Positions 24,280 to 44,844 of a stretch of DNA of 64,000 nucleotides are shown one piece after another; position 1 is the stretch's first letter; each line of letters begins with the position of its first letter. The DNA lies in assembly GCA_041690135.1 (NCBI GenBank), contig JAWLHY010000001.1:960001-1024000 (forward strand). Reading direction: 5' to 3'. The position numbers were made by a program, and so were the translations under genes. The notes beneath the pieces are model-generated. The model was not told the DNA's origin, made no database searches, and saw nothing but the letters and a program-made list of their open reading frames with translations. Origin of the DNA: Armatimonadota bacterium (lineage in GTDB: Bacteria; Armatimonadota; SYMT01).

Positions 24280-24317
24280 CCCGCAGCGGATGCGGTTGAT
24301 CCGCCCGGGAGGTGACC

Positions 24318-26117
24318 ATGGCGCGAGTTTGCGATCATACGACTGAGAGCGGGATTCCCGTGGTCGGTCAACTCGGTTGGGGCGCGCACTTCTGTCAGTT
24401 CTACCGCACCCGGGAGGACCTCGCCGACATCCTGGCCCCCTACTTCATCGCCGGCCTCCGGCAGCACGAGCAGTGTCTCTGGATCGCCTCTCCCCCACTT
24501 TCCGCGGAAGATGCCTGCGACCTGATGCGGGAAGCCTTGCCGGGCTTCGAGGCCTATCTGCAGCAGGGCCAGATCGAGATTCTGGATTATCAGGACTGGT
24601 ACCTCCGCACCGCGGGCTTCAGCACCAGCGACGTCCTCCGGATGTGGGTCGAGCGGCAGGAGCGGGCGCTGGAGCAGGGCTACCATGGGCTGCGCCTCAC
24701 GGGCAATACCTTCTGGCTCGATCGGAGCGGTTGGGACAGCTTCATGGAATATGAGGCGGAGGTCAACCGCACCTTCCGCAGTTTCCGCATCGTGGGTCTC
24801 TGCACCTATTCATTGGATCGGTGCGGCGGCGAGGACGTGCTGGACGTGGTCCGGAACCACCAGTTTGCCCTCGCCCGTCGCCAGGGCGAGTGGGATCTTC
24901 TGGAGAACGCTTCGCTCAAGATCGCCAAGGACGAGCTGCGCCGCCTGAACGAGGAACTGGAGCAGCGCGTCGAAGAGCGGACCCGCGAACTGGAGCGAGC
25001 TCTGCGCGGTCGGGACGAGTTCCTGGCCATGCTGGCCCACGAGCTCCGGAACCCCCTTGCGCCGATCCGGAATGCCGCACACGTGCTGCGGCAGGTCCAG
25101 CCCAGCGAAACGACCCTGCAGTGGGCGCGCGAGCTGGTGGACCGCCAGGTCCAGACCTTGTCCCGCCTGGTGGACGACCTGCTGGATGTCGCCCGGATCA
25201 CCGGAGGAAAAGTACGCCTGGAACGGGAGCGAGTGGAGGTGGCGCAGGTGGTGGCCCGCGCAATCGAGACCGTGCGCCCCACCCTCGACCGCAAGGGCCA
25301 GACGCTGGAGGTGTCCCAGCCCGGTGGCTCGCCCGTCATCCAGGGGGATGCGACCCGGCTCGCCCAGGCGCTGGGAAACCTCCTGCACAATGCCTCCAAG
25401 TACAGTCCCGAAGGCGCTCGCATCCATCTGGAGGTGACCGACCCCACCTTAACCGACCCCTCCCGCGACGCGACCGAGCTGGCTATCCGGGTCCGGGACG
25501 AAGGGGTCGGCATCTCTCCCGAAATGCTGCCGCACGTCTTCGACCTGTTCACCCAGGCCGACCGTTCTCTGGACCGTTCCGAGGGCGGCCTGGGGGTAGG
25601 CCTGACCCTGGCTCGCGGTCTTATTGAGCTGCACGGGGGCCGGATCGAAGTTCGGAGCGAGGGCCCAGGCCGGGGGAGCGAGTTCACGATCTTCCTCCCG
25701 CTTCCGGGAGGCGCCGCGCAAGAAGGGGAGGCGGGTTCCGTCGAGGCGGGGCCGGCAACCGGACGTCGGAGCGTGCTGGTGGTGGACGACAACGTGGATG
25801 CGGCCGAGAGCCTGACGGTGCTGTTGGGGCTGTTCGGGCACTCCGTGGGGGCCGCCCACAGCGGGCGAACTGCCCTGGAGAAAGCCGCCCGAGAGCAGCC
25901 CGACGCCGTGGTGCTGGACATCGGACTACCGGACCTGGACGGCTACGAGGTGGCCCGCCAACTCCGCGCCCAGCCCGGCGGAGAGCGGCTGCTGTTGATT
26001 GCCCTGACCGGCTACGGCCGGGAGGAGGACCAGTGCCGTAGTCGCGAGGCCGGCTTCGATTTCCACATGATCAAGCCGGCCGATCCCGAGCAATTGCGGC
26101 GGCTTTTGCAAGATTAG
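24318..26117 (+). CDS. Hybrid sensor kinase: MEDS domain - HisKA - HATPase - receiver
   Basis: WGAHFCQFY...GLRLTGN...YEAEVN...CTY (MEDS); FLAMLAHELRNPL; NLLHNASKY; GGLGVGL; VDDN..LDIGLP..KP; SD GGAGGT. Confidence 0.93.
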   Translation: MARVCDHTTESGIPVVGQLGWGAHFCQFYRTREDLADILAPYFIAGLRQHEQCLWIASPPLSAEDACDLMREALPGFEAYLQQGQIEILDYQDWYLRTAGFSTSDVLRMWVERQERALEQGYHGLRLTGNTFWLDRSGWDSFMEYEAEVNRTFRSFRIVGLCTYSLDRCGGEDVLDVVRNHQFALARRQGEWDLLENASLKIAKDELRRLNEELEQRVEERTRELERALRGRDEFLAMLAHELRNPLAPIRNAAHVLRQVQPSETTLQWARELVDRQVQTLSRLVDDLLDVARITGGKVRLERERVEVAQVVARAIETVRPTLDRKGQTLEVSQPGGSPVIQGDATRLAQALGNLLHNASKYSPEGARIHLEVTDPTLTDPSRDATELAIRVRDEGVGISPEMLPHVFDLFTQADRSLDRSEGGLGVGLTLARGLIELHGGRIEVRSEGPGRGSEFTIFLPLPGGAAQEGEAGSVEAGPATGRRSVLVVDDNVDAAESLTVLLGLFGHSVGAAHSGRTALEKAAREQPDAVVLDIGLPDLDGYEVARQLRAQPGGERLLLIALTGYGREEDQCRSREAGFDFHMIKPADPEQLRRLLQD

Positions 26118-26208: not shown

Positions 26209-28203
26209 TTGTCGCAGCGAACCTATATGCCAGCCGCCTCGCCTGCTGATCAGCTTCGCCGGAACAATCTCCACGATCTGCCCCATTCCCTCGCCGGTCG
26301 TGGGATACCGCCGCCACCCGGTTTCCTCCCTGTTGCCCAGGAAGATGCTCTTCAGACGATTCCGTCGCGCCTTCGCCAGATTGCCCGGCGACATCCGGAG
26401 CGGCCAGCAGTGCACACGCCCGCCGGCACGCTGACCTACCGGGAGCTGGACCGGGTAACGGACGGTGTTGCCCGGGCTCTCCTCGCCTGCGGGCTCCAGC
26501 GCGGCACACCGATTGGGTTGCTCCTGGATCAGAATGCGACCTCCGGCGCGGTGGGGGTGGTCGGTGCGCTCAAATCCGGCTTTCCCTACCTGCCTTTGGA
26601 CCCCCGGTTCCCGCCGGAACGACTTCGGTTCATGGTGGAGCAATCCGGAACGGCCTTGCTGGTGGCGGATGCCCCTTCGGCGGAGTTCGCCGCGCGATTG
26701 GCCGCCGAGCAGGGGCTTCCGTTACTCCACCTCGAGACACTCTCGTCCGACCCGGAAGCCGCCGCGCCGGAGGTCGAGATCGGTCTCGATGATCCCGCCT
26801 ACCTCTTCTTCACCTCGGGATCGACGGGACGCCCCAAGGGAGTACCGCAGACGCACCGCAACCGGCTGCAGAACATGCGGAACTTCATGAACCTGCTCCA
26901 GGTCTCCCCGGAAGACCGGTTCAGCATGCTCCACTCCTTCGGCTTCAGTGCCTCGGCTTCCGAGTTGTTCGGCGCGTTGATGGCGGGGGCATGCGTCTAC
27001 CCTTACGACGTCCGGCGACAGGGACTTGCCGGTCTCTCCGATTGGCTGGACGAAACCGGGATCTCCGTATTCCAGTGGATTCCCAGCGCACTCCGGGCCC
27101 TCGCCGCGAGTTTGGAGCCTGCCCGTGTGTTCCCGTCGGTGCGGGTCCTCCAGCTCAGCAGCGAGCCCGTTACCGAGACCGAGGTGGTCTTGTTCCGCCG
27201 GCACTTCCGGCCCGGCAGCGTCCTGGTCAACCGCTACGGCACCACCGAGACCAGCATCGTCACGCAGTTCCTCGTCGATCACGACACCACGCTCGATGGG
27301 CCTCTCGTTCCTTCCGGTTACCCGCTTCCGGGGAAAGAGGTTCTGATCCTGGATGAACAGGGCGCCGCATGCCCGCCGGGCACCCCAGGAGAGATCGCGA
27401 TCCGGAGCGCTTTCCACTCCCCTGGCTACTGGCGGGCTCCCGAACTCACCGCGCAGCGTTTCCGGGAGCTTGAAGGAACGGACGACCGCCTCTATTTCAC
27501 CGGCGACCGGGGCCGCCTGCGGCCGGACGGCTGCCTGGAACATCTGGGCCGGCTCGATCAGCAGGTGAAAGTGCGTGGCTACCGGGTGGAGATTGCGGAA
27601 GTAGAAGCGGCGCTGCGGCGGATCGAGGGCGTCCGGGATGCGGCGGTTCTCGCACGCGTGGATGACGCCCAGGGGGATGGTGAGGTGGAATTGGTCGCCT
27701 ACGTCGTGCGGCAGGAGGCGACTACCCATACCCGGTTGCGAACCGTGCTGGCCGGTCTTCTCCCGGAGGGGCTGCTCCCCCGCCGGTACATCTTCCTTCC
27801 CCACCTGCCCATCACGCCCACGGGTAAACTCGACCGGTCCGCCCTTCCGGACCCCGGGGCGTCCCGTCCCGATCTGGACGGACCTTACATTCCGCCGGAG
27901 ACCCCGCTGGAAGAAGAGCTTGCCGGTCTCTGGTCCGAGACCCTGGGCGTACGTCCGGTCGGGCGGCACGACTCGTTCCTGGAATTGGGCGGCAATTCTC
28001 TCCGGGCGGCCAAGCTCCTCGCGCGTATCGGGGAGCGCTGGGGAGTGCGTCTGGCTCCGGTGGACCTTTTTGCCCGGCCGACGGTCGCCCAGACCGCCAC
28101 CGCCATCCTCTGCCATGTGGCTGAAGAGGCGGGCGCGCCGTCCCTGGAAGCACTACTCTCTGAACTGGATGACGACGAGCCACAAGGGGAGGCGCGACCA
28201 TGA
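26209..28203 (+). CDS. NRPS-like A-T didomain protein 1
   Basis: FTSGSTGRPKG, NRYGTTE, YFTGDRG, QVKVRGYRVE, TGKLDR; carrier motif LGGNSL; start may be ATG 26227. Confidence 0.92.
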   Translation: MSQRTYMPAASPADQLRRNNLHDLPHSLAGRGIPPPPGFLPVAQEDALQTIPSRLRQIARRHPERPAVHTPAGTLTYRELDRVTDGVARALLACGLQRGTPIGLLLDQNATSGAVGVVGALKSGFPYLPLDPRFPPERLRFMVEQSGTALLVADAPSAEFAARLAAEQGLPLLHLETLSSDPEAAAPEVEIGLDDPAYLFFTSGSTGRPKGVPQTHRNRLQNMRNFMNLLQVSPEDRFSMLHSFGFSASASELFGALMAGACVYPYDVRRQGLAGLSDWLDETGISVFQWIPSALRALAASLEPARVFPSVRVLQLSSEPVTETEVVLFRRHFRPGSVLVNRYGTTETSIVTQFLVDHDTTLDGPLVPSGYPLPGKEVLILDEQGAACPPGTPGEIAIRSAFHSPGYWRAPELTAQRFRELEGTDDRLYFTGDRGRLRPDGCLEHLGRLDQQVKVRGYRVEIAEVEAALRRIEGVRDAAVLARVDDAQGDGEVELVAYVVRQEATTHTRLRTVLAGLLPEGLLPRRYIFLPHLPITPTGKLDRSALPDPGASRPDLDGPYIPPETPLEEELAGLWSETLGVRPVGRHDSFLELGGNSLRAAKLLARIGERWGVRLAPVDLFARPTVAQTATAILCHVAEEAGAPSLEALLSELDDDEPQGEARP

Positions 28204-30206
28204 TCACCCCCGTAATCCGCGAGCGGAACGCTCGGTTCGAAGCGGTGCACTCGCTCCGCGCGCGCGGGATCCCGCCCCCACCCGGCTATCGGCCGATGGC
28301 GGAAGAAGAGGCTCGTCTGTCCGTAGCAGACCGCATCCGCCAGATAGGAGAGCGCTATCCCCACCGGCCCGCGTTCCACACCGAGGAGGAAGTGGTTACT
28401 TACGCGGAGCTCAACCGGCGAGCCAATCAGGTGGCAAGGGCCATCCACGCGATGCAGCCGGAGGCCCTCGCCCCTATCGGCCTCTGTTTTGCACCCACCC
28501 GCCCGCCGATGGCTATTGGCCATGTGGGTGCGGTTAAGACAGGTCGGCCTTACGTGGCGCTCGACCCCGGTTTCCCCCGCGACCGCCTGGTGTACGCGCT
28601 CCGCCACTCCGGCGCCTCGCTGATCCTGACCGACACTTCCTCCTCGGCGCTGGCGCATGACCTGGCGCGAGAAAGTGGAGCAGCGGTCATCGATACGGAA
28701 ACGCAGGCGGGGGCCTTCCCCGACACCGATTTTCGCGTGGAGATCGGTCCCAACGATCCGATCTACATCGTTTACACCTCGGGTTCCACCGGAGAACCAA
28801 AAGGCGTCTGGTGGCCGAACCGGTCTCGAATGGTCGCCACCTGGCTCTTTAACCGGCACTTTCACTGCAGTCCGGAAGACCGGTTTACCATGCTCCACTC
28901 CTACGGCTTCGCCGCCTCCAAACCGGAGTTCTGGGGCGCGTTACTGGAAGGAGCGTGCGTCTACCCTTACGACTTCCGCCGGCGGGGTGTTCAGGACCTG
29001 GCGGCGTGGCTCCAAGAGCAGCGGGTCACGATTTTCCAGTGGATTCCCAGTGCACTGCGGGCTTTCGCCGCGGAACTCCCTCCGGAGGTAACGTTTCCCT
29101 CGCTGCGGCTGCTGCTCTTGATCAGCGAGCCGGTCACGGAACGGGAGGTCGCCATCTACCGCGAGCGCTGCTTGCCGCCGTGTGTGCTCGGCAACCGGTA
29201 CGGCAGCACCGAAGCCGGTCTCACCACCCATTTCCTCGTCGACTTCCATACCCCCCTGGAAGGGCCGGCGGTGCCTTCCGGGTACCCGCTGCCAGGAAGG
29301 TCGGTGCAGATCGTGAACCCGCAGGGCGCACAACTTCCCCCCGGCCAGGATGGAGAGATCATCGTCCAGTCGGCGTTGACCTCGGGCGGTTACTGGCGGG
29401 ATCCGGCGTTGACAGCGGCCCGCTTCACACCGGTTCCGGGTTCGGACGAGCGAGTCTTCGCCACTGGCGACCGGGGCCGCCTGCGACCGGACGGCTGCCT
29501 GGAACACCTGGGGAGGCTCGACGCGCAGGTCAAGGTCCGCGGTCACCGGGTGGAAGTCGCCGAAGTGGAAGCGGCCCTCCGCCGGCTGCCGCGGGTGGCC
29601 GACGCCGTGGTCCTGCCGCGGCAGGTTGACGAGGAGGTGGCCCTGACTGCTTACCTGGTGGCCACCGGCGGCGCCGCACTCCCCGTATCGGAAGTGCGGA
29701 GCGCCCTCGCCGCGAGTCTCCCCTCCGGCTTCGTCCCCGACCGCTATGTGCTGCTTCCGGACCTGCCCCGCACCGCTACGGGCAAGGTCAACCCGAGCGC
29801 GCTCCCGGACCCGGACGACTCGCGGCCGAATCTGCCGCAGCCGTTCGCAGCCCCAGAAACCCCGCTGGAGGAGCAAATCGCCACCCTGTGGTCCGAGATG
29901 CTCCGAGTCTTCCCGGTCGGTCGCCACGACTCGTACCTCGACCTGGGCGGCAACTCGCTCCGGGCCGCCCGCATCGCCGTCAGGCTCTCACAGGAGTGCG
30001 GTGTGAGTCTCACTCCCGTGGATCTGTTCGCTCATCCTACCGTGGCTCAGCTCGCGTCCCACATCCTGTCGCTGCTGATGGACCAGGAGGCCCCGGAGGC
30101 ACTGGATGAATTCCTTTCAAGCTTCCGCGAACCGGAAAGTCACTCCTCCGGGAGTGATGCGGCCCCTAGCCTACCCTCCCCCGTATTGCCCGCCGCCAAC
30201 GTGTGA
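28200..30206 (+). CDS. NRPS-like A-T didomain protein 2
   Basis: ATGA overlap; YTSGSTGEPKG, NRYGSTE, TGDRG, TGKVN; LGGNSL. Confidence 0.92.
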   Translation: MITPVIRERNARFEAVHSLRARGIPPPPGYRPMAEEEARLSVADRIRQIGERYPHRPAFHTEEEVVTYAELNRRANQVARAIHAMQPEALAPIGLCFAPTRPPMAIGHVGAVKTGRPYVALDPGFPRDRLVYALRHSGASLILTDTSSSALAHDLARESGAAVIDTETQAGAFPDTDFRVEIGPNDPIYIVYTSGSTGEPKGVWWPNRSRMVATWLFNRHFHCSPEDRFTMLHSYGFAASKPEFWGALLEGACVYPYDFRRRGVQDLAAWLQEQRVTIFQWIPSALRAFAAELPPEVTFPSLRLLLLISEPVTEREVAIYRERCLPPCVLGNRYGSTEAGLTTHFLVDFHTPLEGPAVPSGYPLPGRSVQIVNPQGAQLPPGQDGEIIVQSALTSGGYWRDPALTAARFTPVPGSDERVFATGDRGRLRPDGCLEHLGRLDAQVKVRGHRVEVAEVEAALRRLPRVADAVVLPRQVDEEVALTAYLVATGGAALPVSEVRSALAASLPSGFVPDRYVLLPDLPRTATGKVNPSALPDPDDSRPNLPQPFAAPETPLEEQIATLWSEMLRVFPVGRHDSYLDLGGNSLRAARIAVRLSQECGVSLTPVDLFAHPTVAQLASHILSLLMDQEAPEALDEFLSSFREPESHSSGSDAAPSLPSPVLPAANV

Positions 30207-32092
30207 GAGTGCTTGTGATTGCAGTTGATCCCCGCCCGCAACTCGTCCCGTCCCCCATACATGCCACAATCCATGCCCGCATCACCACCATTGCCCGTAT
30301 GCATTCCCAACGTCGGGCGCTGGTTTTTCACGGAGGTAGCTGGAGCCACGGACAACTCGATCGGACTGCCGCGCAAGTAGCCCGCGTGCTGATAGAGGAA
30401 GGTGTCGCCCCTGGGGAGCCGGTGGCGGTTGGTATGGGGCAGTCGCCGTTCACCATTGCCGCTTTCCTCGGAATTGCAAAAGCCGGCGGCGCGTGGGTAC
30501 CGATCGACCCGGCGGCGCCCCCCGAAGCCTGGGAAAGCGTACTTCAAGACACCGGCGCCCGGGTGGTGCTTGCCGGGAAAGAAGCCCCTGGCGCCCTACA
30601 GCAGGATCTCGCGCGGTGGTGGGTGCCGCTTCCGGAGGCGCTGGACGGCGTGGCCCCGGATCCGCCGGAAGTTTCCGGCTCGGCCCACCTGCCCATGTCG
30701 ATCATGTACAGCTCGGGCTCCACGGGCCGGCCGAAGGGGATCATCCAGACACATTGGTCTCGCCTGCATCAACTCGACGCGCACCTCCGGACGCTGGAGG
30801 TGACCGAGACGGATCGCTTCACCCTGCTGCACCAACTCCACTTCGCTACCTCGTCTTCCGACGTGTTCGGCGCGTTACTCTCCGGCGCGGAACTGCACAT
30901 GTTCGATCTCCTCGCGGAAGGCATGGAGAGCCTCGCAGGGTGGCTCCTCGCCTCCCGAGCCACCATCTATGCGTGGACACCGAGTGCCTTCCGGGCGTTC
31001 ACACGCGGGTTGCCGCCGGGGACCCACTTTCCGGACGTCCGGCGGGTGATCCTGGGGAGCGAACCGGTACTGCGTTCGGATATCGAAGCCTTCCGCCGGC
31101 ATTTCCCCGCCTCCTGCCAATTCGTCAACCGCCTCGGTTCGGCGGAAGCTGGGAACTACGCCTATTACTTCGCGGGATCGGAAGAAGAGCCACCGGACGA
31201 TATCGTGCCGGCAGGTCGAGCTCCCGTCGGCTGGGACGTGAGCGTGGTTGACGAGCGCGGCAGCCCGGTGCCGGACGGTGAAACAGGCGAGATCCAGGTT
31301 CGGAGCGCCTATCTCTCTCCCGGCTATTGGCGAAGACCGGAGTTAACGGAAGAGGTGTTCCGCCCGGATGGCGAGCGTGACGTACAGGTGATCCGGACGG
31401 GCGACATGGGTCGCTTCCTCCCTGATGGAAACCTCCTCCACCTGGGGCGCAAAAACTTTCAGGTGAAGATCGGCGGTGTGACCATCCATCCGCTGGAAGT
31501 GGAAGCTGCACTGGCACAGCTTCCCGGCATCGTGGAAGCTGCCGTCGCGGCCTATCTGGATCGGGGTGGAAGCTCCGTTCTGGCCGCGTATCTCGTAGGC
31601 GAGGCCGGCGGTCGCCCGTATACCACCAGTCGTCTCCGGTCTATCCTGGGAGAGAAGCTCCCTCCTGCCGCCATACCAACGTCGTTTCAGTACCTGGAAA
31701 GTCTCCCGCGAACGCACGTGGGTAAGGTCGACCGCCTCGAATTGCCACGGCCGGCAGGTGAGCGGCCGGAACTGGACACACCTTTCGCACCGCCAGAAGG
31801 CCCCACGGAGGGACACCTCGCCCGGATCTGGTCGGAAGTGCTGGAGGTCTCGCCGGTCGGAAGACACGACCCATTCCTCGAGTTGGGTGGCAGCTCGCTC
31901 CGGGCCGTGCAGATCCTGGCGCGAGTTTCTGAACAGTGGGGAGTTACTCTCCCGCTGACCGTGCTCTTCGCCGATCCGACCGTGGCCGGGCTCGCCCAGG
32001 CCGTGGCCTCGACCGTGGCCGCCGGCGCCTCCGAAGCCGAGCTTCTTTCACTCCTGAACGAACTGGATGCTGCCGAGGTATGGGACCCATGA
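30203..32092 (+). CDS. NRPS-like A-T didomain protein 3
   Basis: GTGA overlap; YSSGSTGRPKG, NRLGSAE, RTGDMG, VGKVDR; LGGSSL. Confidence 0.9.
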   Translation: MRVLVIAVDPRPQLVPSPIHATIHARITTIARMHSQRRALVFHGGSWSHGQLDRTAAQVARVLIEEGVAPGEPVAVGMGQSPFTIAAFLGIAKAGGAWVPIDPAAPPEAWESVLQDTGARVVLAGKEAPGALQQDLARWWVPLPEALDGVAPDPPEVSGSAHLPMSIMYSSGSTGRPKGIIQTHWSRLHQLDAHLRTLEVTETDRFTLLHQLHFATSSSDVFGALLSGAELHMFDLLAEGMESLAGWLLASRATIYAWTPSAFRAFTRGLPPGTHFPDVRRVILGSEPVLRSDIEAFRRHFPASCQFVNRLGSAEAGNYAYYFAGSEEEPPDDIVPAGRAPVGWDVSVVDERGSPVPDGETGEIQVRSAYLSPGYWRRPELTEEVFRPDGERDVQVIRTGDMGRFLPDGNLLHLGRKNFQVKIGGVTIHPLEVEAALAQLPGIVEAAVAAYLDRGGSSVLAAYLVGEAGGRPYTTSRLRSILGEKLPPAAIPTSFQYLESLPRTHVGKVDRLELPRPAGERPELDTPFAPPEGPTEGHLARIWSEVLEVSPVGRHDPFLELGGSSLRAVQILARVSEQWGVTLPLTVLFADPTVAGLAQAVASTVAAGASEAELLSLLNELDAAEVWDP

Positions 32093-34032
32093 GCGCAATG
32101 CCTGCTCCATGCAACAATGACACTGGCGCTTCCCCCCGGTCCTCGGTCCATCGGCTGGCTCTACCGCTGGTGTCCCCGGCAGCTGGTTATATGCCTTTCT
32201 TTTCCTCGGGGAAGACGCGGACGATCCACGGCCGGTTCGAAGAGGTGGTGCAGCGAAACCCGTCCGCTGCCGCCCTGCTGCACGATGGTGATTCTTGGAC
32301 ATACCGGCGCCTGAATGCCGCGGCTAACCGGATCGCCCACCAGCTTCTAACATTCGGTGTCCGTCCCGGACAACCGGTGCCACTGGTTGCCGGACATCAT
32401 CCCCAGGCAGTGGCCGCTTACCTGGGAATCTGCAAGGCCGGAGGCATCGTGGTTCCCCTCGACCGGAAGAGCCCCACGGGTCTCTTGTCGCGGTTTCAGG
32501 CAGACTGCAACGCGCCGTTGTTGGTGGCCGACTCCGCGAGTGCGGGGAACCTCCGGAGCCTGGCGGACTCCGCCGGATGTCGGGTCATGGTCCTGGGGAG
32601 TGAAGTGGACCAGCCGGAACGGAGCCCGGGAGTACCGGTAAGCCCGGATGATCCCTTTGCAATCGTCTACAGTTCGGGGACCACCGGCGCTCCCAAGGGA
32701 GTCCTGCTCACCCATGCACAGCGGTTCTACCAGACGGGGCACTACGCGGACGCAATCGGGATCGGTCCCGGCGACCGGTTCTCCTTTCTTCACCCACTCC
32801 ACTCCGCCGCAGCGATGGCCGATTTCGTGACCGGTCTGCTGGTCGGAGCGACGATGGTGATGTACGATGTGCAGGAGCAAGGGCTGGAGCCGCTGGCGCG
32901 CTGGGTGCGCCGGTCGGAGTTGACGGTGTTCCACTGGATGCCGGGCGGCTTCCGGAGGTTTGCGGCCACGCTGGCTCCGGAAGACCGTTTCACCGGTCTC
33001 CGGCTCGTTATGTTGGGAAGCGAGCCGGCGCTCGATAGCGACCTGGCGGCCTACCAGCACCATTTCGCACCCCCCTGCCGCTTTATCAACCGCTTCGCGG
33101 CCGCCGAGTCGGGCTGCTTTTCCTATTTCACCGCGGATCATTCCACCCCTTCGCCGGGTCCCGTCCTCCCCATTGGCGCCTGCATCGATGGCTGGCAGGT
33201 GGAGGTCGTTGATGGCGAGGGGCAGGCTCTCCCTCCCGGTGTAGAGGGGCGGCTTTTCATCCGCAGCGCGTTTCTCAGCTCCGGGTACTGGCAGCGACCC
33301 GACCTCACCTCCACCGCATTTGCCGAGGCGCCGGGCACGCACGAAAGGCTCTGGAAAACGAGCGATCTGGCTGTCTTCCGCGCCGATGGAAACCTCGTCC
33401 ACCTCGGCCGCGGCGATGCGGTGGTCAAGGTCAGCGGGCGCAACGTGGCGCTGCTGGAAGTGGAGGCTGTGCTGCAGCGGCACCCGCAGGTGGCCGAGGC
33501 GGCCGTGGTTGGCCAGTCGCGGCCGGGTCGCGAGCCTCGGATCGTGGCCTACGTTGTCCCGTCCGAGCACCCAGCGCCGTCTTCCACCGATTTGCGGCAG
33601 TTCGCGGCATCCCAGTTGATCCCGGCCGCCGTGCCGGCGCGCTTCGTCTACCTGTCGGCCTTTCCCCACACGCGTACGGGCAAAGTCGACCGGAAGGGGC
33701 TTCCGGATCCCGGCCGGGGTCGCCCCGACCTGGCCCAGGAGTTTGTCCCCGCGGCGAGCCCGATCGAAGCCGCCCTCGCCGAGATCTGGTCCGAGGTCCT
33801 GGACGTTTCGCCGATCGGCCGCCTCGATCCGTTCCTGGAGCTGGGCGGCTCCTCCCTGATGGCGGCACAGATTGTCGCTCGCCTCGCCGAACGGTGCGAG
33901 GTGCGCCTGACGCCGGCCCAGGTGTTCACCGCCGGGACCCTCGCCGCGCTGGCGCAGTTGGTGGTGGCGGAGTTGACCAGCGGCCTGGACTCGACCCTCC
34001 TGGATGAGTTGCTGGGCGAGGCCGGAGAGTAA
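32089..34032 (+). CDS. NRPS-like A-T didomain protein 4
   Basis: ATGA overlap at 32089; YSSGTTGAPKG, NRFAAAE, WKTSDL, TGKVDR; LGGSSL. Confidence 0.9.
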   Translation: MSAMPAPCNNDTGASPRSSVHRLALPLVSPAAGYMPFFSSGKTRTIHGRFEEVVQRNPSAAALLHDGDSWTYRRLNAAANRIAHQLLTFGVRPGQPVPLVAGHHPQAVAAYLGICKAGGIVVPLDRKSPTGLLSRFQADCNAPLLVADSASAGNLRSLADSAGCRVMVLGSEVDQPERSPGVPVSPDDPFAIVYSSGTTGAPKGVLLTHAQRFYQTGHYADAIGIGPGDRFSFLHPLHSAAAMADFVTGLLVGATMVMYDVQEQGLEPLARWVRRSELTVFHWMPGGFRRFAATLAPEDRFTGLRLVMLGSEPALDSDLAAYQHHFAPPCRFINRFAAAESGCFSYFTADHSTPSPGPVLPIGACIDGWQVEVVDGEGQALPPGVEGRLFIRSAFLSSGYWQRPDLTSTAFAEAPGTHERLWKTSDLAVFRADGNLVHLGRGDAVVKVSGRNVALLEVEAVLQRHPQVAEAAVVGQSRPGREPRIVAYVVPSEHPAPSSTDLRQFAASQLIPAAVPARFVYLSAFPHTRTGKVDRKGLPDPGRGRPDLAQEFVPAASPIEAALAEIWSEVLDVSPIGRLDPFLELGGSSLMAAQIVARLAERCEVRLTPAQVFTAGTLAALAQLVVAELTSGLDSTLLDELLGEAGE

Positions 34033-34037
34033 ACCCT

Positions 34038-37000
34038 ATGAGTGACCTGCAAGAACGCCTGGCCCGCCTGACCCCCGCGCAGCGCGCCGAATTGGAGCGA
34101 CGCCTGCTGCAGCGTGCTTCAGCCGGAGCCGTCGCGAGCCACATTCCCCGGCGAGACCCGGAAGTCCCCTGCCCGCTTTCGTTCTCGCAGCGTCGACTCT
34201 GGTTCATGGAGCAGTTGGAGCCCGGCAACGCCGCCTACCACATCGCCGTTCGGTGGGAGCTCCGCGGCGCCCTGGAGCCGTCGGCCCTCCGCGCCGCGTT
34301 CGAGGCGGTGGTCCGCCGGCACGAGGCCCTGCGCACCGTTTTCCGCCTGGAGGGAGGCGAGCCGGTCCAGGTTGTGGTCGACCACTGCTCCGGCTACTTT
34401 GCGGAACAGGACCTGCGCACCGTGGCGGAGGAGCAGCGTCAGGCGGCATGGGAAGAGGCCTGCCAGGGACAGATCCGGACCCCGTTCGATCTGGTTCAAA
34501 GCCCGCTCTTCCGGGTGCTGCTGGGACGGCTGGCCGACCAGGAGTACCGGATGTGCGTGGTGATCCACCACATCATCGGCGATGGGTGGACCATGGGCAT
34601 CCTGTGGAAGGAGCTGTCCCAGGCCTATACGGCCCAGGTGACCGGAGCCGCGCCGGGTTGGCCGGAGTTGGAAATCCAGTTCCCGGACTATGCCCAGTGG
34701 CAGCGAGATCATCTCCAGGGCTCCGAGTTGGAAAAACATCTGGAGTTCTGGAAAGAGGAACTGGCTGGCGCCCCGACCGTGATCGACCTCCCTTACGACC
34801 GACCGGTTCCACCTGCTCGCGACCATGCCGGATCCCGGTATCACTTCCCGATGTCCAGCGAGTTGCTGGAAGAGCTCCGGGGTCTTGCCCGGACCGAAGG
34901 GGTGAGCCTGTTCATGCTGCTGCTGGCGGCCTTCCAGGTGCTCCTCCACCGCTATACCGGTCAAGACGATCTCCTGGTAGGCACCCCCGTGGCGAACCGT
35001 GGCCGCACGGAGGTCGAGCCGCTGATAGGATTCTTCGTCAACACCCTCGTGCTGCGCGGGCGCCTGGAGGGTGATCCTTCCTTCCGGGCGTTCCTGCGGC
35101 GGACGCGGGAGATCTGCCTGCGCGCGTTTGGCCATCAGGACCTGCCGTTCGAACGGATGATCGAGGACCTCCACCAGGAGCGCAGCCTGGGCCACAACCC
35201 GGTGTTCCAGGTGATGTTCAGCCTCCAGAACGCCCCCCGGACCTTTCTGGAGCTGCCGGAGGTACAGGCCGCGCGTGAGGTCGTCCCGCGTGAGACCTCG
35301 ATGTTCGACCTGACCTTCGATCTCACGGAAACCGCCGAAGGTCTCTGGTGCTGGATGGAGTACGCGGCCGATGTGTTCGATCGCCCCACGATTGCGCGCA
35401 TGGCAGGCCATTACGAGACCCTCCTGCGAGCCATTGTCACCGATCCCGAGAGACCGATCTCCGCGCTTCCGCTGCTCCCGGAAGCGGAGCGCCGGCAACT
35501 GCTGGTCGCGTGGAACGCTACGGAAGCTCCGCTCCTAGCAGGAACGTGTCTCCACCAGCTCTTTGCGGAGCAGGTTGGGCGTACTCCGGACGCGCCGGCC
35601 GTGGTGTGGCAGGGACGGACCTGGACCTACGCCGAGCTGGACTTGCGAGCGGAGACTCTGGCCCGGCGTTTGCTCGCCCAAGGGGTGGGTCCGGAAAGCC
35701 GTGTGGGGATCTGCCTGGAACGCACCCCGCAGATGATCGCGGCGGTGCTGGGCGTGCTCAAGGCGGGTGGCGCCTACGTGCCCCTGGACCCTGCCTATCC
35801 CCGGGACCGTCTCGACTTCATGCTCCAGGACGCGGAGGTAGCTGTTCTCATCTCCGAGCGGGAACTGGCTTGCGGTTTCGCGCAATGCCCCGCCCCCGTG
35901 CTCTTCATCGACGGTGACGAAGAGCCTTTCGCGCGTGACCCTGCGAACCTCCCGGAAGTTTCCGACCGCAACCTCGCCTACGTGATGTACACCTCCGGCT
36001 CCACGGGGAGGCCGAAGGGAGTGGCGGTGGAGCACCGGAGCGTGGTCGCTCTGGTCGAGTGGTCGAAGAGCCTGGTCGGCCCGGAGGAGATCGCGGGCAT
36101 GCTGGCCTCCACTTCCCTCTGCTTTGACCTTTCCGTCTTCGAGATCTTCGCCACGCTCTGTCGCGGCGGCGCGGTCATCCTGGCGAAGAACCTGCTGGAG
36201 CTGCCGGAACTCCCGGATGCCCTCCGGGTGACGCTGGTCAATACCGTTCCCTCCATCCTGGCCGAGCTCTTGCGCCGCCACACTCTCCCGACGGGAGTGC
36301 TCACCACCATCCTTTGCGGCGAGCCCCTCTCCACGGAGCTCGTGGATACGCTTTACGCGCAGGGGGTGGAGCGCGTCTACGATCTCTACGGTCCCACGGA
36401 AGACACGGTTTACTCCACGTGGGTGCTGCGCCGGGCCGGGGGACCGGCGACGATCGGGCGGCCGATCGCTAACTCGCAGGCCTACGTTCTCGACCCCCGG
36501 CGGGAGCCGGTTCCCATCGGCGTGCCCGGTGAGCTGTACCTGGGCGGGGCCGGGCTGGCGCGGGGCTATTTGCACCGGCCAGAATTGACCGCCGAGCGGT
36601 TCGTCCCCCATCCCTTCAACCAGGACCCGGAAGCTCGCCTCTACCGCACGGGCGACCGGGTCCGGTTTCTCCCGGATGGCCAGCTACAGTTCCTGGGGCG
36701 GCTCGACAACCAGGTGAAGCTTCGCGGTTTCCGGATCGAATTGGGCGAGATCGAAGCGCTGCTGCGTGCCCATCCGGCATTGGCTGAAGTCGCCGTCCTG
36801 CTGCGGGAAGACGCGGGGGAGAAGCGGATCGTGGCCTACTGCATTGCGGGTGAGGCGGCCCCCACCGCTTCCGACCTGCGCTCGCTGCTGCGCGAGCGCC
36901 TTCCGGAGCATGTGATTCCCTCGGCTTTTGTCTTCCTGGATCGCCTGCCGCTGCTGCCCAACGGAAAGCTCGACCGGCGGGCGCTCCCGGCGCCACAAGT

Positions 37001-38147
37001 CAAGGCCCTGGCAGTGGATACTCACGCCGGCAATTCCGGACCGCGCGACGTGCTGGAACGGCAGCTCCTGGCCGTCTGGAAGCGGACCCTCGGTGCCGGC
37101 CAGGTCGGCACCCGGGACAGCTTCTTCGATTTGGGGGGGCATTCACTGCTAGCGCTGCGGTTGTTCGACGAAATCGAGCGGACGCTGGAGCGGCGCTTGC
37201 CGCTTTCACTGATCTTCCAGGCGCCGACCGTGGAGCAGATGGCGGAAGTCTTGCGTAAGGACGGCTATCAACCCCGCTGGACCTCCCTCGTCCCGATCCA
37301 GCAGCAGGGGAGTCGTCTCCCATTCTTTTGTGTCCACGGCGGCGGTGGTTACGTGGTCTTCTTGAAAGATCTGGTGGCGCGGCTCGGTCCCGACCAGCCG
37401 TTCTTCGGCCTGCAACCGGCCTACTTGGGAGGTGGCCCGCGTCACCAATCCATCGGGGAGATGGCGGCGCACTACCTCCACGAAATCCGCCAGGCTCAAC
37501 CGGAGGGGCCGTACCAATTGGGCGGCGCGTCATACGGAGGCGTCATAGCGTATGAGATCGCGCAGCGACTCATGGCTGCCGGGGAAGAGGTGAGTCTACT
37601 CGCCCTGTTCGACACCCATGCTCCCGGATACGGTCGCTCCCGTCCGGGCTTGGGCCGCTGGGTGCGGCGCCTGCTGGCCCAGGCCTACCGGGTAGAGCAC
37701 CACGTGGTGAGCGTCCTCTTGCTGGAACAGGAGCGGCGTGGGAAATACATCCGCGAGAAGCTAGAGCGAGTCCGCTACGAAGCGGAAACGGGTGTGATAG
37801 GGCTTAAAAGGCGTGTGACCCGGGAACAGGTCCGCTTATCCGGTGCGAGCGAAGGTTCCCTCGCACCCGAGGCTACGACCTACGTCGACCTCTTGCGGCG
37901 CTACGAGCCTGAGCCCTATCCTGGTAAAGTGACCCTGTTCCGCGCGGGGCGGCAGTGGCCGGTGGAGCGCCCCTTACCGTGTCTGGGTTGGAGCGCCCTG
38001 GCGGAAGGTGGTCTGGAGATCATTCCCGTTCCCGGTTTCCACGCCGCCCTCCTTCAGGAGCCTCATGTCCGCACCACCGCCGAAAAGCTCCGGGAACGGA
38101 TTACTGTGTCGGCTCATACTGAACGTGTCCATCCACAAACAGGTTGA
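34038..38147 (+). CDS. NRPS termination module C-A-T-TE
   Basis: LSFSQRRLWF, HHIIGDG (C); YTSGSTGRPKG, FDLS, LYGPTE, YRTGD, NGKLDR (A); FFDLGGHSL (T); GASYG (TE). Confidence 0.96.
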   Translation: MSDLQERLARLTPAQRAELERRLLQRASAGAVASHIPRRDPEVPCPLSFSQRRLWFMEQLEPGNAAYHIAVRWELRGALEPSALRAAFEAVVRRHEALRTVFRLEGGEPVQVVVDHCSGYFAEQDLRTVAEEQRQAAWEEACQGQIRTPFDLVQSPLFRVLLGRLADQEYRMCVVIHHIIGDGWTMGILWKELSQAYTAQVTGAAPGWPELEIQFPDYAQWQRDHLQGSELEKHLEFWKEELAGAPTVIDLPYDRPVPPARDHAGSRYHFPMSSELLEELRGLARTEGVSLFMLLLAAFQVLLHRYTGQDDLLVGTPVANRGRTEVEPLIGFFVNTLVLRGRLEGDPSFRAFLRRTREICLRAFGHQDLPFERMIEDLHQERSLGHNPVFQVMFSLQNAPRTFLELPEVQAAREVVPRETSMFDLTFDLTETAEGLWCWMEYAADVFDRPTIARMAGHYETLLRAIVTDPERPISALPLLPEAERRQLLVAWNATEAPLLAGTCLHQLFAEQVGRTPDAPAVVWQGRTWTYAELDLRAETLARRLLAQGVGPESRVGICLERTPQMIAAVLGVLKAGGAYVPLDPAYPRDRLDFMLQDAEVAVLISERELACGFAQCPAPVLFIDGDEEPFARDPANLPEVSDRNLAYVMYTSGSTGRPKGVAVEHRSVVALVEWSKSLVGPEEIAGMLASTSLCFDLSVFEIFATLCRGGAVILAKNLLELPELPDALRVTLVNTVPSILAELLRRHTLPTGVLTTILCGEPLSTELVDTLYAQGVERVYDLYGPTEDTVYSTWVLRRAGGPATIGRPIANSQAYVLDPRREPVPIGVPGELYLGGAGLARGYLHRPELTAERFVPHPFNQDPEARLYRTGDRVRFLPDGQLQFLGRLDNQVKLRGFRIELGEIEALLRAHPALAEVAVLLREDAGEKRIVAYCIAGEAAPTASDLRSLLRERLPEHVIPSAFVFLDRLPLLPNGKLDRRALPAPQVKALAVDTHAGNSGPRDVLERQLLAVWKRTLGAGQVGTRDSFFDLGGHSLLALRLFDEIERTLERRLPLSLIFQAPTVEQMAEVLRKDGYQPRWTSLVPIQQQGSRLPFFCVHGGGGYVVFLKDLVARLGPDQPFFGLQPAYLGGGPRHQSIGEMAAHYLHEIRQAQPEGPYQLGGASYGGVIAYEIAQRLMAAGEEVSLLALFDTHAPGYGRSRPGLGRWVRRLLAQAYRVEHHVVSVLLLEQERRGKYIREKLERVRYEAETGVIGLKRRVTREQVRLSGASEGSLAPEATTYVDLLRRYEPEPYPGKVTLFRAGRQWPVERPLPCLGWSALAEGGLEIIPVPGFHAALLQEPHVRTTAEKLRERITVSAHTERVHPQTG

Positions 38148-39468
38148 TGCGGCCCCCCGCTACAGGGGCATAGCCCAACAGCGTCTTCGAAGGCTCCGTG
38201 ATGTCCACAAGTCTGCTGCCAGGGTATGTGTAGGTGAACCCTTCCAGCACGGTCTCCTGTTTCAGGTAGGGGTTGAGGAGCGTACGCAAGTCCGCGTCGC
38301 TGCTCGGGAGCGTCTCCTGGTGGTCCTGCGCGTAAATGAGCAGGGCGGTGCCTAAATGTTTCAGGTTCGACATCACCGTAGTTCTCTCGGCTTCCGCTTT
38401 CGCAAGTAGGTAAAGCTTCCGATCCATGCGCACCAGGCGCCGGACGTAAGCGGTCCCCTCACTCGTGTACAGCACGGCATCACCCTTCGGCGAGAGGAAC
38501 CCTCCCGGGCTGTCGGCAGCCACCAGAACACGGGGGCGCTCGCTGACCTCTACGGACTCCAGCCAGAGTGGCTGGAGTTTTCGCGCCGTCTCGCCTTCCC
38601 TTACCGTAACTGTTCCGGTGCGGATCCGGAAGGGCTGGCTTGCGGGCGGCGGCGGTGTGACTCTCCGAGGACGCGTGGGAGACGGAGTAATCTTGCCGGA
38701 GACCGCATCCAGCAGGTGCCAGCGCAGCTTGGGGCGCATCGCGCCCGCTCCGCTGCGGTCGTTGAGGACAAACGCAACGTGGCTCCCCCCTTCGGCCCAG
38801 TAAATGGTCGTGATCTGCTCCTCTGCCTTTGGCGCACTGTATTCTCGCACGGCCCCCGAAGCGCTGATGAGGCGCAAGGTATTCCGCTCCAGGCTGGAGA
38901 GGTAGGCTAGGGGGTGGGTGGGCGACGCGCGCATCCGCGTATCTCCCGGCACGCGGAAGAGCAGGTGAAAGGAAGATCGGCGGGCATCGATCCGCAGCAG
39001 CCAGTGCTCGACGGGGCGAGGCGCCGCAGTCGTGGGGGTTCCCTTGGGAAGTGGTGGCACCACCTGGACCAGCGCCAGGGCGATCTCCGAGTTCGGTAGC
39101 CAGGTGAACTGGATGAGTTCGGGGTCGGCGCTATCGGACTTCCACACCTCGCGGGAGCGGCCTCCTTCAGATTTCCAGTGCACGAGCGCCGTGTGGATGG
39201 AAGGTCGCCCTGCCAGGCCGGCCCGTAGGTTCGGTTTCACACGGAGCGCCAAAATGTGCGCCCCCGACGGTGACCAGAGCGCCAGCGGCACCGGGCCCTG
39301 TGCCACGACCTCGGGAGTATCCAGCACGAAGGCATCCGTGCGAGTGAGCAGACAGAGATCCGGGTTCGGCAGCGATACCGGGGCTGCTGCTACGGGAGCG
39401 AGGGCGCCAAGCACCAGGCAGAGCCCGGTGAGTTTGAGCGGATGCGGGTGCCGCAGACGAAATCTCAT
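38101..39468 (-). CDS. Exported beta-propeller-like protein with C-terminal DUF1559-like domain
   Basis: Signal peptide; WSPSG/LSPKGD TolB-like motifs; C-terminus SNLKHLGTALLIYAQDH...NLFVDGHV; 47-nt convergent overlap with the NRPS. Confidence 0.75.
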   Translation of the reverse strand: MRFRLRHPHPLKLTGLCLVLGALAPVAAAPVSLPNPDLCLLTRTDAFVLDTPEVVAQGPVPLALWSPSGAHILALRVKPNLRAGLAGRPSIHTALVHWKSEGGRSREVWKSDSADPELIQFTWLPNSEIALALVQVVPPLPKGTPTTAAPRPVEHWLLRIDARRSSFHLLFRVPGDTRMRASPTHPLAYLSSLERNTLRLISASGAVREYSAPKAEEQITTIYWAEGGSHVAFVLNDRSGAGAMRPKLRWHLLDAVSGKITPSPTRPRRVTPPPPASQPFRIRTGTVTVREGETARKLQPLWLESVEVSERPRVLVAADSPGGFLSPKGDAVLYTSEGTAYVRRLVRMDRKLYLLAKAEAERTTVMSNLKHLGTALLIYAQDHQETLPSSDADLRTLLNPYLKQETVLEGFTYTYPGSRLVDITEPSKTLLGYAPVAGGRINLFVDGHVQYEPTQ

Positions 39469-43497: not shown

Positions 43498-43509
43498 GGA
43501 GAACCCGGA

Positions 43510-44844
43510 ATGAGCCGAATCGCCCTGTTGGTCGACCGGAAAGAGAACCGGCGGATACTCGGTCAATGGTTAGCTTCGCGTTACGAAGTGCACGATGCGC
43601 ACCAGGAGCTCAACGGTACGGCGCCCGACCTGGTGCTGGTGGACGGTCCTGCCCTCTCCCGGCTATGCGAGCAGTTGATCGCTCGCCGTGAGAACGAACG
43701 ACCAGTGACTCTACCGGTACTGCTGATCGCTTCCAGCGGCGAGGGACCCGTGCCGCGTTGGGTCTGGAATTGTGTCGATGAAGTGATCCGGGCTCCAATC
43801 GAGAAGGTGGAGCTCCAGGCTCGGGTGGAGGTGCTTTTGCGCCTCCGCCGGCTCTCGCTGCAACTCCACGAACGGGCGGAGGCCCTGGCCAGCCGGCTGG
43901 GCCGCGTCCTCGACGACTCGCCGAACGGCATCTTTATCTTCGACGCTGGGTCACTTCGCTTTGTACAGGTAAATCACGGGGCCTCACGTGCTCTCGGCTA
44001 TACCGCCGACGAACTCCTGGGGATGACGCTCCAGGATCTCCAGCCCGAACTGACGATGGAACAACTGCGCGAGGTGCTGGAGCCGCTTCGCACCGGCGAA
44101 CAGGAACAGGCCGTATTCGAGACGACCCAGCAACGCAAAGACGGATCCAGTTTTCCTGTCGAGTACCGCATTCGCCATTCTCCGGGCGAGAGCCCCCCCG
44201 TGTTCGTGGCGGTGGTCCAGGACATCACCGAGCGGCGCCGGGCCGAGGAACTGGAGCAGGAGGCGCATCTTCGAGCCCTGCAGGGGGAGGTGGAAAAACG
44301 CCGCTTTGCCCGGGACGTGCTGTGCGCCGTTACCCAGCGGAAGTTTCTCCTGGTGGATCGTTCGGAGATTCCCACCGAGGGCCGGCTGGTCCTGGACCTC
44401 CCCACCGAGAACGGCCAGCAATACCGGCAGGCGCGCCATGCGTTGGAGACGGTAGCACTGGACTGCGGAATGTCGGACGAGCGGGCCGCCAACCTGGTGC
44501 TGGCGGTGGGAGAAGCCATTGGGAATGCTCTCAAACACGCCACCCACGGTCGCTGTCAGGTCTACGTGAAGGAAGGCGCCCTTCTGGTCCGCGTGTCCGA
44601 CCGCGGCCAGGGGATGCGTTGGCAGGATCTCCCCGCCACGGTGCTCACCGCTGGTTACTCCACCAAGATCTCCCTGGGCGTGGGCTACACCCTCATGCTG
44701 GAACTGGCGGACCAGATCTGGCTCAGCACGGGCCCGGAAGGCACCATTGTCCAGCTTGCCTGCTCCGTCGAACCGCAACCCGAACTGGAGCCCGCCGAGC
44801 TCCTCGCCTCCGCCATGGACCGGCTTGGAAACGACGGCTGGTAG
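43510..44844 (+). CDS. Degenerate receiver - PAS - HATPase (RsbW/anti-sigma-type) signalling protein
   Basis: PDLVLVD; PAS with RKDGSSFPVE..VQDITE; AVGEAIGNALKHA, VSDRGQG, SLGVGY; no HisKA H-box. Confidence 0.85.
   Translation: MSRIALLVDRKENRRILGQWLASRYEVHDAHQELNGTAPDLVLVDGPALSRLCEQLIARRENERPVTLPVLLIASSGEGPVPRWVWNCVDEVIRAPIEKVELQARVEVLLRLRRLSLQLHERAEALASRLGRVLDDSPNGIFIFDAGSLRFVQVNHGASRALGYTADELLGMTLQDLQPELTMEQLREVLEPLRTGEQEQAVFETTQQRKDGSSFPVEYRIRHSPGESPPVFVAVVQDITERRRAEELEQEAHLRALQGEVEKRRFARDVLCAVTQRKFLLVDRSEIPTEGRLVLDLPTENGQQYRQARHALETVALDCGMSDERAANLVLAVGEAIGNALKHATHGRCQVYVKEGALLVRVSDRGQGMRWQDLPATVLTAGYSTKISLGVGYTLMLELADQIWLSTGPEGTIVQLACSVEPQPELEPAELLASAMDRLGNDGW

Follow-up and report, generated by a model that had tools for sequence, protein, structure and literature searches.

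A candidate fan-in peptide synthetase with four stand-alone loading proteins and a single condensation domain in an Armatimonadota bacterium

Introduction

The anabaenopeptin synthetases of Anabaena sp. 90 (AptA1/AptA2; Rouhiainen et al. 2010) have alternative starter modules: as excerpts of PMC8402340 describe them, adjacent paralogous starter proteins of differing specificities serve one downstream line and give rise to product variants. In nonribosomal peptide synthetases (NRPSs) of the enterobactin type (EntE, EntB(ArCP) and EntF; PDB 5T3D/5JA1), a non-amino acid is adenylated, carried in trans and condensed onto a small amino acid by a lone module of condensation (C), adenylation (A), thiolation or carrier (T) and thioesterase (TE) domains. 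FrsA makes an N-acylated amino acid that becomes a side chain of FR900359 (PMC7794379). It is reportedly a stand-alone C-A-T-TE protein as well, whose TE handles this product. Here we describe an operon that bears a likeness to each of these systems. It lies in a 64,000-nucleotide stretch of the genome of an Armatimonadota bacterium (GenBank assembly GCA_041690135.1, contig JAWLHY010000001.1, positions 960,001 to 1,024,000, forward strand; hereafter "the window") and consists of four genes for stand-alone A-T proteins, AT1 to AT4 (the "loaders"), followed by one gene for a C-A-T-TE protein.

The nature of the units handled by such proteins can be approached through the A domains. Asp235 binds the alpha-amino group of the substrate. 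According to excerpts of PMC11253843, A domains for hydroxy or keto acids carry a small residue at this position; the keto-acid domain StsA also replaces a conserved Pro in motif A5, and mutation of this Pro in LgrA raises keto-acid activation. The four loaders depart from amino-acid A domains at both places. We hold the chances to be slightly better than even that the operon encodes a fan-in, two-module NRPS, in which alternative starter modules would feed one C domain of the LCL type and one A domain for a small, Ala-like residue, giving N-acyl amino acids.

Results

Organization of the operon

The open reading frame (ORF) listing, Pfam searches and direct reading of the sequence define five co-directional genes on the forward strand, in the order AT1, AT2, AT3, AT4 and C-A-T-TE (Table 1). 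Each loader consists of AMP-binding (E-values 5e-68 to 3e-60), AMP-binding_C and PP-binding domains and nothing else. The fifth protein (34038-38147, 1369 aa) matches Condensation (5.7e-111), AMP-binding (2.5e-84), AMP-binding_C, PP-binding and Thioesterase (2.4e-22). Carrier serines are intact in all five proteins (GGNSL in AT1 and AT2, GGSSL in AT3 and AT4, GGHSL in C-A-T-TE). This is the arrangement that an earlier description of the locus, made from the letters and their translations (the sequence-only reading), had reported, and Pfam bears it out. The same reading had the genes translationally coupled. This holds for three junctions, where start and stop codons overlap: ATGA at 28200-28203 (AT1/AT2), GTGA at 30203-30206 (AT2/AT3, provided that GTG 30203 is the true start) and ATGA at 32089-32092 (AT3/AT4). 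It does not extend to the last one, where the TAA of AT4 and the ATG of C-A-T-TE at 34038 are separated by a 5 nt gap. The start of AT1 is more likely ATG 26227 than TTG 26209, since the resulting 658 aa equal the length of the 77% identical orthologue P0002; AT4 starts at 32089 rather than at the upstream GTG 31936. The four loaders are 36-53% identical to one another in pairwise comparisons, AT1 and AT2 being the 53% pair, and are thus not a collapsed or duplicated repeat.

The loaders lack both hallmarks of amino-acid activation

Pocket residues were assigned by alignment (HMMER against LgrA; MAFFT), with positions numbered in what we take to be the GrsA scheme. The residue aligned with Asp235 is Ser in AT1 and Ala in AT2, AT3 and AT4. 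The respective A4 motifs read FSASASE, FAASKPE, FATSSSD and SAAAMAD, as against FDLSVFE in the A domain of the C-A-T-TE protein (the in-cis A domain). The A5 Pro, kept in the latter (YGPTE), is replaced by Thr in AT1 (YGTTE), Ser in AT2 and AT3 (YGSTE, LGSAE) and Ala in AT4 (FAAAE). Pocket position 322 is Arg in every loader, Lys517 is retained, and the P-loop, the A7 Asp, the A10 Lys and the carrier Ser are intact in all four. AT3 and AT4 also differ from the motif forms that we assume to be canonical for A8, A5 and A7: in AT3, GRKN replaces GRxD and KIGG replaces KIRG, and AT4 has NRFAAAE, WKTSD and VKVSG.

With the NCBIfam model for amino-acid adenylation (TIGR01733, curated cut-off 317.4 bits), only AT1 scores above the cut-off among the loaders (335.8 bits); AT2 (305.4), AT3 (278.7) and AT4 (274.0) fall below it, and the in-cis A domain reaches 427.2. 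The top NCBIfam and PDB matches of the loaders are NRPS A domains, not fatty-acid ligases. Pfam finds no ketoreductase (KR) domain, such as cereulide- or valinomycin-type A-KR-T modules contain, in the five operon proteins or elsewhere in the window.

The residues S/A/A/A at position 235 and T/S/S/A at the Pro position correspond to both features that excerpts of PMC11253843 give for hydroxy- and keto-acid domains. Because Asp235 and the A5 Pro are both lost in all four, the loaders probably activate carboxylic acids without an alpha-amino group. The premise of the sequence-only reading that each A-T protein, as an ordinary amino-acid module, should have a C domain of its own loses its footing here. 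The alignment-based pocket codes differ from loader to loader (Table 1), which is what different substrates would predict. The pockets are polar or cationic; Arg322 and the Ser/Gln-rich pocket of AT1 invite the speculation that these are polar or anionic.

A clade of A domains without Asp235

Among 5.8 billion proteins searched with AT1, the matches included numerous A-T proteins that stand alone (some 600-700 aa) and A-T-TE proteins (some 830-940 aa), with identities of 36-45%. A small number of matches were C-A-T proteins or had a sulfotransferase or acyltransferase domain fused to them. We aligned 123 domains, namely the four loaders, the in-cis A domain and 118 matches. Position 235 is most often Ser (44 domains), Ala (24) or Gly (22); just 4 domains have Asp. 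Neither Asp235 nor the A5 Pro is present in 110 of the 123, and Lys517 is present in every one. The Asp235-less domains split from conventional A domains with a support of 100 (FastTree, 125 rows; IQ-TREE quick tree, 35 rows). Inside this clade, AT1-AT4 and their orthologues form one group with moderate support (85 and 88.6 in the two trees), with AT1 pairing with AT2 and AT3 with AT4 (support 99-100). This grouping indicates that the four genes most likely arose by duplication within the lineage. In the FastTree tree, the sister branch of the loaders is made of A-T-TE proteins (P0006/P0008).

Three members of the clade (P0040, P0152 and P0027) are fused to sulfotransferase (PF13469/PF00685) or lipid-A-type acyltransferase (PF03279) domains, which hints that the carried acids may be passed to diverse acceptors. 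Limited literature searches turned up no account of such an operon or A-domain clade and no characterised member of the clade. Other collections added little: metagenome contigs searched with an AT1/AT2 alignment gave one uninformative 2.2-kb locus (36% identity), the ESM Atlas gave only generically named A-T clusters, and the top plasmid matches of AT1 (tblastn) were large Ralstonia NRPS/polyketide synthase genes at 38%.

The terminal module and the only condensation domain of the genome

The C domain has the catalytic HHxxxDG motif (VIHHIIGDGW). Its best solved relatives in a PDB search are Txo1 (3e-104), Txo2 (3e-102), the second C domain of DhbF (4e-86) and TycC6 (1.5e-81), all of which we take to be elongation (LCL-type) domains, followed by SrfA-C (1e-34). 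None of the solved chains that we take to be starter C domains, the subtype that accepts acyl-CoA or acyl-ACP in lipo-initiation of the FrsA or surfactin type, reached 1e-10 in this search.

The in-cis A domain keeps Asp235 and Lys517 (NGKLDR) and has the code DLFNICLVYK, which resembles that of the Gly-specific module 2 of LgrA (DIANLCIIY, read from the alignment). Among solved single-domain structures, the A-T part is closest to McyA2 (8JBR, 584 bits, as against 452 bits for the runner-up), which excerpts of bioRxiv 10.1101/2023.11.13.566838 report to activate L-Ala experimentally. The code also resembles the predicted Cys code of PchE, DLFNLSLIWK (excerpts of PMC11253843). These likenesses point to a small residue as the likely substrate, with Ala as the best guess. 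Within the set compared, the TE domain comes closest to those of orphan A-T-TE proteins belonging to the loader clade (36-41% identity over the full length), and is 37% identical to TEs of the multimodular NRPSs P0247 and P0236.

The genome assembly (9,098,857 bases, 25 contigs, 97.17% complete) contains exactly one match to the Condensation domain, the one in the operon. A C domain acting in trans from elsewhere is therefore unlikely, save for the 3% that is unassembled. The genome has ten carrier domains, no MbtH at its 97.17% completeness, and one phosphopantetheinyl transferase (PPTase), of the Sfp type (AASDHPPT_N and ACPS), on another contig.

Orthologue searches covered AT1, AT2, AT4 and C-A-T-TE, and each returned a protein from a 19,601 bp contig of one source (Table 1). 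The odd motifs of AT4 are kept in its orthologue P0124 (NRFAAAE, WKTSD and VKVSGRNV). In P0176, the pocket residues of the in-cis A domain are invariant and the C-A-T part is 83-87% conserved. Orthologues at 73-83% identity in which even the odd motifs of AT4 persist support the notion that the operon genes are under purifying selection.

Putative docking elements

A helix, LTPAQRAELERRL, begins the C-A-T-TE protein, within the 44 residues that precede the C domain. This head is 84% conserved in P0176, where 29 of the first 31 residues are identical. Beyond the carrier domain, each loader terminates in an acidic, amphipathic tail, which contains LLSEL in AT1, LDEFLSSF in AT2, LLNEL in AT3 and LLDEL in AT4. 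The short LLxEL motif, present in three of the four loaders, occurs in 38 of 1300 windows drawn at random from the interior of homologues; the full tail motif is carried by 9 of the 65 A-T homologues that stand alone and by 6 of the 1300 control windows. The head motif was found in 19 of 119 NRPS proteins that start with a C domain. A like tail/head pair exists at the split T/C junctions examined in four genomes of the same phylum (G001, G266, G019 and G183; Table 1). These resemblances suggest that all four loaders would dock on the single head of C-A-T-TE. A complex prediction for the AT1 tail (residues 612-658) with C-A-T-TE residues 1-495 scored 0.01, which is no verdict, and we count it neither for nor against binding.

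Comparable loci in the phylum

AT1 was searched against 401 genomes of the phylum, with three candidates scored per genome. Among these candidates, the closest matches outside the source genome are A-T-TE proteins, at 43-44% identity. In other loci, a loader stands before a C-A-T-TE module. In a genome of the same family as the source (G001; L053:2656-11061), an A-KR-T protein (1399 aa), which appears to be a keto-acid-type loader, precedes a single C-A-T-TE module of 1395 aa that is 44% identical to that of the operon over 1382 residues. G266 has an A-T, a C-A-T-TE and a PPTase gene (L057), and in G303 a PPTase gene adjoins a fused A-T-C-A-T-TE of 1965 aa (L048), whose first A domain (36% identity with AT1) falls inside the Asp235-less clade, and whose C-A-T-TE part is 38% identical to the operon's. 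A longer version, A-T, C-A-T and C-A-T-TE with a PPTase, is found in G019.

The uncharacterised pairs in G001, G266 and G303 follow the same two-module logic as the operon, with C-A-T-TE parts 38-44% identical to the operon's over the full length, and the junction motifs of G001 and G266 are like those of the operon. Each has one loader, however, where the operon has four, and the loaders of G001 and G266 are distant ligases (24-27% identity to AT1), leaving G303 as the only one of the three with its first A domain in the Asp235-less clade. One non-amino loader plus one terminal module is thus a recurrent minimal design in the phylum, and the presence of four loaders is the unusual part. The architecture as a whole, which the sequence-only reading had called unusual, is so only in this latter respect. 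No second four-loader example was seen in the searches made, which were not designed to exclude one.

Within the Asp235-less clade, the orphan A-T-TE proteins are encoded by single genes in varied contexts (loci L041-L047, in G310, G196, G160, G080, G341, G234 and G283), and their function appears to be unstudied. An Sfp-type PPTase gene adjoins the A-T-TE gene in two of the seven loci examined (L043, L044), and in one (L041) the neighbours are ABC exporters and a PadR regulator.

Genomic context

Pfam analysis of every sizeable ORF of the window revealed no further C domain and no ketosynthase, MbtH, PPTase, tailoring or exporter gene; on this point the sequence-only reading, which had noted their absence from the immediate flanks, was right. 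The nearest transporter-like gene in the window is an amino-acid permease at 3600-5117. The gene for a MEDS-type hybrid sensor kinase, in the same orientation as AT1, ends some 100 nt before it, and its product is a possible regulator of the operon. Downstream of C-A-T-TE, about 880 bp without a convincing gene (38148-39031) precede a gene for a DUF1080-type protein; this interval has no ORF with a Pfam match or a typical pattern of GC at third codon positions, no Rfam match and no terminator-like site. Promoter/terminator and Rfam scans showed nothing above chance around the operon. The window contains many genes for sulfatases, FG-GAP/ASPIC proteins and DUF1559 proteins with an N-terminal methylation motif, a content that we take to be planctomycete-like.

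Two other features of the window, both on the forward strand, deserve mention in their own right. At 41926-44844, a KaiC-like double ATPase is directly followed by a PAS/HATPase_c_2 protein, a KaiC-type signalling pair outside cyanobacteria. At 54555-59531, a 1658-aa protein combines DUF5724, DUF4132 and DUF7737 with HEAT repeats, and a 142-aa ORF without Pfam match precedes it. Elsewhere in the genome, contig 16 carries an NRPS-like cluster (L038:7723-14442) made up of an A-T-R protein (1042 aa), an S-adenosylmethionine (SAM) methyltransferase, an unannotated 296-aa ORF and an asparagine-synthase homologue (AsnB); an alcohol-dehydrogenase-like gene and a GntR/aminotransferase fusion adjoin it. 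We judged this A-T-R locus, with its methyltransferase and AsnB, unrelated to the operon. A scan of genome contigs with C-A-T-TE gave 25 loci, all of them generic NRPS modules at 28-48% identity, and we took none of them as an orthologue.

Table 1. Features of the operon, its upstream neighbour, the orthologues of its products and split junctions in related genomes (positions in the window)
Feature	Position	Strand	Remarks
Hybrid sensor kinase	24312-26117	+	MEDS-HisKA-HATPase-REC (Pfam)
AT1, stand-alone A-T	26227-28203	+	658 aa; code SASQQSRIVK; A5 NRYGTTE; carrier GGNSL; tail LEALLSELDDDE
AT2, stand-alone A-T	28200-30206	+	668 aa; code AAPQLIRLTK; A5 NRYGSTE; carrier GGNSL; tail EALDEFLSSF
AT3, stand-alone A-T	30203-32092	+	629 aa; code ATSAIGRNYK; A5 NRLGSAE; A8 GRKNFQVKIGG (degenerate); carrier GGSSL; tail ELLSLLNELDAAE
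AT4, stand-alone A-T	32089-34032	+	647 aa; code AAAHMGRCFK; A5 NRFAAAE; A7 WKTSD; carrier GGSSL; tail LLDELLGEAGE
C-A-T-TE, N-terminal extension (candidate docking head)	34038-34169	+	44 residues; begins MSDLQERLARLTPAQRAELERRLLQR
C-A-T-TE, Condensation domain	34170-35504	+	HHIIGDG (Pfam; PDB search)
C-A-T-TE, in-cis A domain	35562-36968	+	FDLSVFE (Asp235 kept); YGPTE; code DLFNICLVYK
C-A-T-TE, carrier (T) domain	37062-37250	+	GGHSL (Pfam; direct reading)
C-A-T-TE, Thioesterase domain	37323-38147	+	GASYG nucleophile motif; long insertion (Pfam; direct reading)
P0002, orthologue of AT1			77% identity
P0004, orthologue of AT2			76% identity
P0124, orthologue of AT4			73% identity (global alignment), 76% (search listing)
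P0176, orthologue of C-A-T-TE			83% identity
Split T/C junction, G001			A-KR-T ends ELADLLDELEGLSEAEV; start region of C-A-T-TE LEKLSPEKRALLARKL
Split T/C junction, G266			A-T ends ELSNLLDDLE; C-A-T-TE begins VSDLSRRIANLPPEKRALLEKRL
Split T/C junction, G019			C-A-T ends ELADLLDTVE; C-A-T-TE begins MSSLDDRLAGLTPAQRAALERALL
Split T/C junction, G183			upstream protein ends MQRLLAELEGLTDDEV; downstream protein begins MSSLGDQISRLSPERRALLEQKL

Discussion

Domain content, motif losses, paralogy, conservation and the single C domain of the genome are direct observations; from these we infer a substrate class, a mode of docking and a product. In the fan-in scheme, each A-T paralogue would adenylate a different carboxylic acid devoid of an alpha-amino group and place it on its own carrier domain. 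The acidic LLxEL-type tail at the C-terminus of the loader would then dock it onto the helix at the start of C-A-T-TE, whose C domain would join the acyl group to the small (Ala-like) amino acid supplied by the in-cis A domain. Hydrolysis, cyclisation or transfer to an acceptor, each by the TE, would be the ways in which the N-acyl amino acid is released. A unit that lacks an alpha-amine is unable to act as acceptor and could only start a chain, so that one C domain would be enough; the output would be up to four N-capped amino acids rather than a pentapeptide.

Several points weigh against this scheme. The C domain most resembles elongation (LCL-type) domains, not starter ones, and donors of such domains are aminoacyl or peptidyl. 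The pocket positions were assigned by alignment under a presumed GrsA numbering, and specificities read from them have the standing of alignment-based predictions. A Ser or Ala in place of Asp235 would, taken alone, still be compatible with unusual amino acids (beta- or aromatic ones, for instance). The tail of AT2 fits the tail motif only loosely, and the placement of the four orthologues on a single contig is presumed from the equal size of 19,601 bp only. In addition, AT3 and AT4 could have little or no activity, given how degenerate their A5 and A8 motifs are, and the kinship of the loaders with A-T-TE proteins, together with a TE like theirs, makes a TE-centred chemistry conceivable in which the C domain is bypassed.

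This last point is the core of one alternative, which we regard as unlikely though the best placed of those considered in this section. The A-T proteins would be A-T-TE proteins that lost their TE, and their acyl groups would go straight to the TE of C-A-T-TE, or to some other acceptor; the products, besides or instead of N-acyl amino acids, would be esters, dimers or acylated acceptors. The identity of the loaders' nearest relatives in the phylum (orphan A-T-TE proteins, 43-44%), their sister branch in the tree and the full-length similarity of the TE to those of the A-T-TE family (36-41%) fit this idea. The TE is equally close, however, to the TEs of the multimodular P0247 and P0236, the tail and head motifs match those of T/C rather than T/TE junctions, and a functional C-A-T part would not be needed, yet it is highly conserved in P0176. 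Departures of AT3 and AT4 from the presumed canonical motifs raise another alternative, that only some loaders are catalytically active and that these two are relics, scaffolds or regulators. We think this improbable, as the odd motifs of AT4 and most of its pocket are kept in an orthologue of 73-76% identity, the catalytic residues and carrier serines are intact in all four loaders, and loss of the A5 Pro is a trait of the whole clade.

The assembly of all four units into one product, a depsipeptide-like molecule built by iterative use of the C or TE domain or through non-canonical bonds (esters from hydroxy acids, A-domain amidation), likewise has only a small chance in our estimate. Translational coupling does suggest stoichiometric co-expression, and hydroxy acids, if they are the substrates, would offer a nucleophile for an ester bond. 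On the other hand, neither a KR nor a second C nor an ester-forming domain is seen, the only acceptor site is the in-cis carrier, and the comparable loci in relatives are all of the simple loader-plus-module kind. The sequence-only reading had left space for non-canonical bonds through iterative C use, A-domain amidation or enzymes in trans; we found no positive support for any of them, and the trans-C version is weakened by the finding that the genome's only C domain is the one in the operon. That reading had also named an assembly artefact as a possible source of the missing C domains. Loss of C domains by misassembly, or the splitting of one gene, has in our judgement a negligible probability: the window contains no N and belongs to a 1.62-Mb contig, the paralogues have diverged well beyond what a repeated segment would show (36-53% identity), every ORF is a complete A-T with its own start and stop, and orthologues of similar length exist in another assembly.

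If the fan-in reading is correct, the operon would be the most compact natural example of such an NRPS (four loaders, one docking head, one C domain) among those known to us, limited literature searches included. It would offer a system for studying docking tails and the donor site of a C domain under competition between starters, and for engineering N-capped amino acids. A broader conjecture, to which we give clearly less than an even chance, is that the very large Asp235-less clade (A-T and A-T-TE proteins and fusions, with Ser, Ala or Gly at 235 and Arg, Lys or His in the pocket) activates non-amino acids of a polar or anionic kind (dicarboxylic, keto or sugar acids, for instance) that are unrecognised as NRPS building blocks; in that case, the operon would act as a natural combinatorial device, its four loaders competing, through one docking code, for a single condensation site. 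Assigning substrates to this clade would improve automated NRPS prediction, which otherwise labels its members "amino acid adenylation" and reports missing C domains. Should the fan-in reading be wrong and the operon make a single four-unit product, a bond-forming route invisible in the sequence would be needed, which would be more surprising.

How the operon stands among described systems can now be considered. As in the anabaenopeptin case, it has an alternative-starter pattern: four adjacent paralogues of one clade with four different pocket codes. As far as excerpts of PMC8402340 go, two bimodular amino-acid starters feed a multi-module line in anabaenopeptin synthesis, whereas here four single A-T loaders would feed one terminal module. 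The anabaenopeptin variants are backed by product evidence; those of the operon are predicted. With respect to the enterobactin type, the loaders are NRPS-type A-T fusions and not EntE-type ligases. Aryl-capped siderophore synthetases (enterobactin or myxochelin type) usually come with MbtH. Pfam shows no EntE-type ligase, isochorismatase-ArCP or aryl-acid biosynthesis gene in the window, and the genome, as said, has no MbtH; the only isochorismatase-domain match lies in a locus of another genome (L043). EntF and AB3403 are examples, among the solved structures matched, of lone C-A-T-TE modules fed in trans; EntF ranks low for the A-T part and does not reach 1e-10 for the C domain. FrsA, whose domain order is reportedly C(starter)-A-T-TE, differs in that its acyl group comes from a coenzyme A (CoA) thioester via a starter C domain, whereas the operon has an elongation-type C domain and carrier-bound donors would come from the A-T proteins.

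Compared by motif residues, the loaders resemble StsA, the cereulide domains and enniatin EnSynA1 in having a small residue at 235 and a replaced A5 Pro; the keto- and hydroxy-acid modules covered by excerpts of PMC11253843 have an embedded KR or hydrophobic pockets, unlike the loaders, which lack a KR and combine Ser or Ala at 235 with Arg322. The stieleriacines, N-acyl tyrosines of planctomycetes, were rejected as a model, since excerpts of PMC12479983 ascribe them to NasY-type synthases and not to an NRPS. Alternative starters and trans-fed C-A-T-TE modules are thus both known, and the operon would seem to combine the two in an extreme, minimal form, with loaders drawn from an apparently uncharacterised clade.

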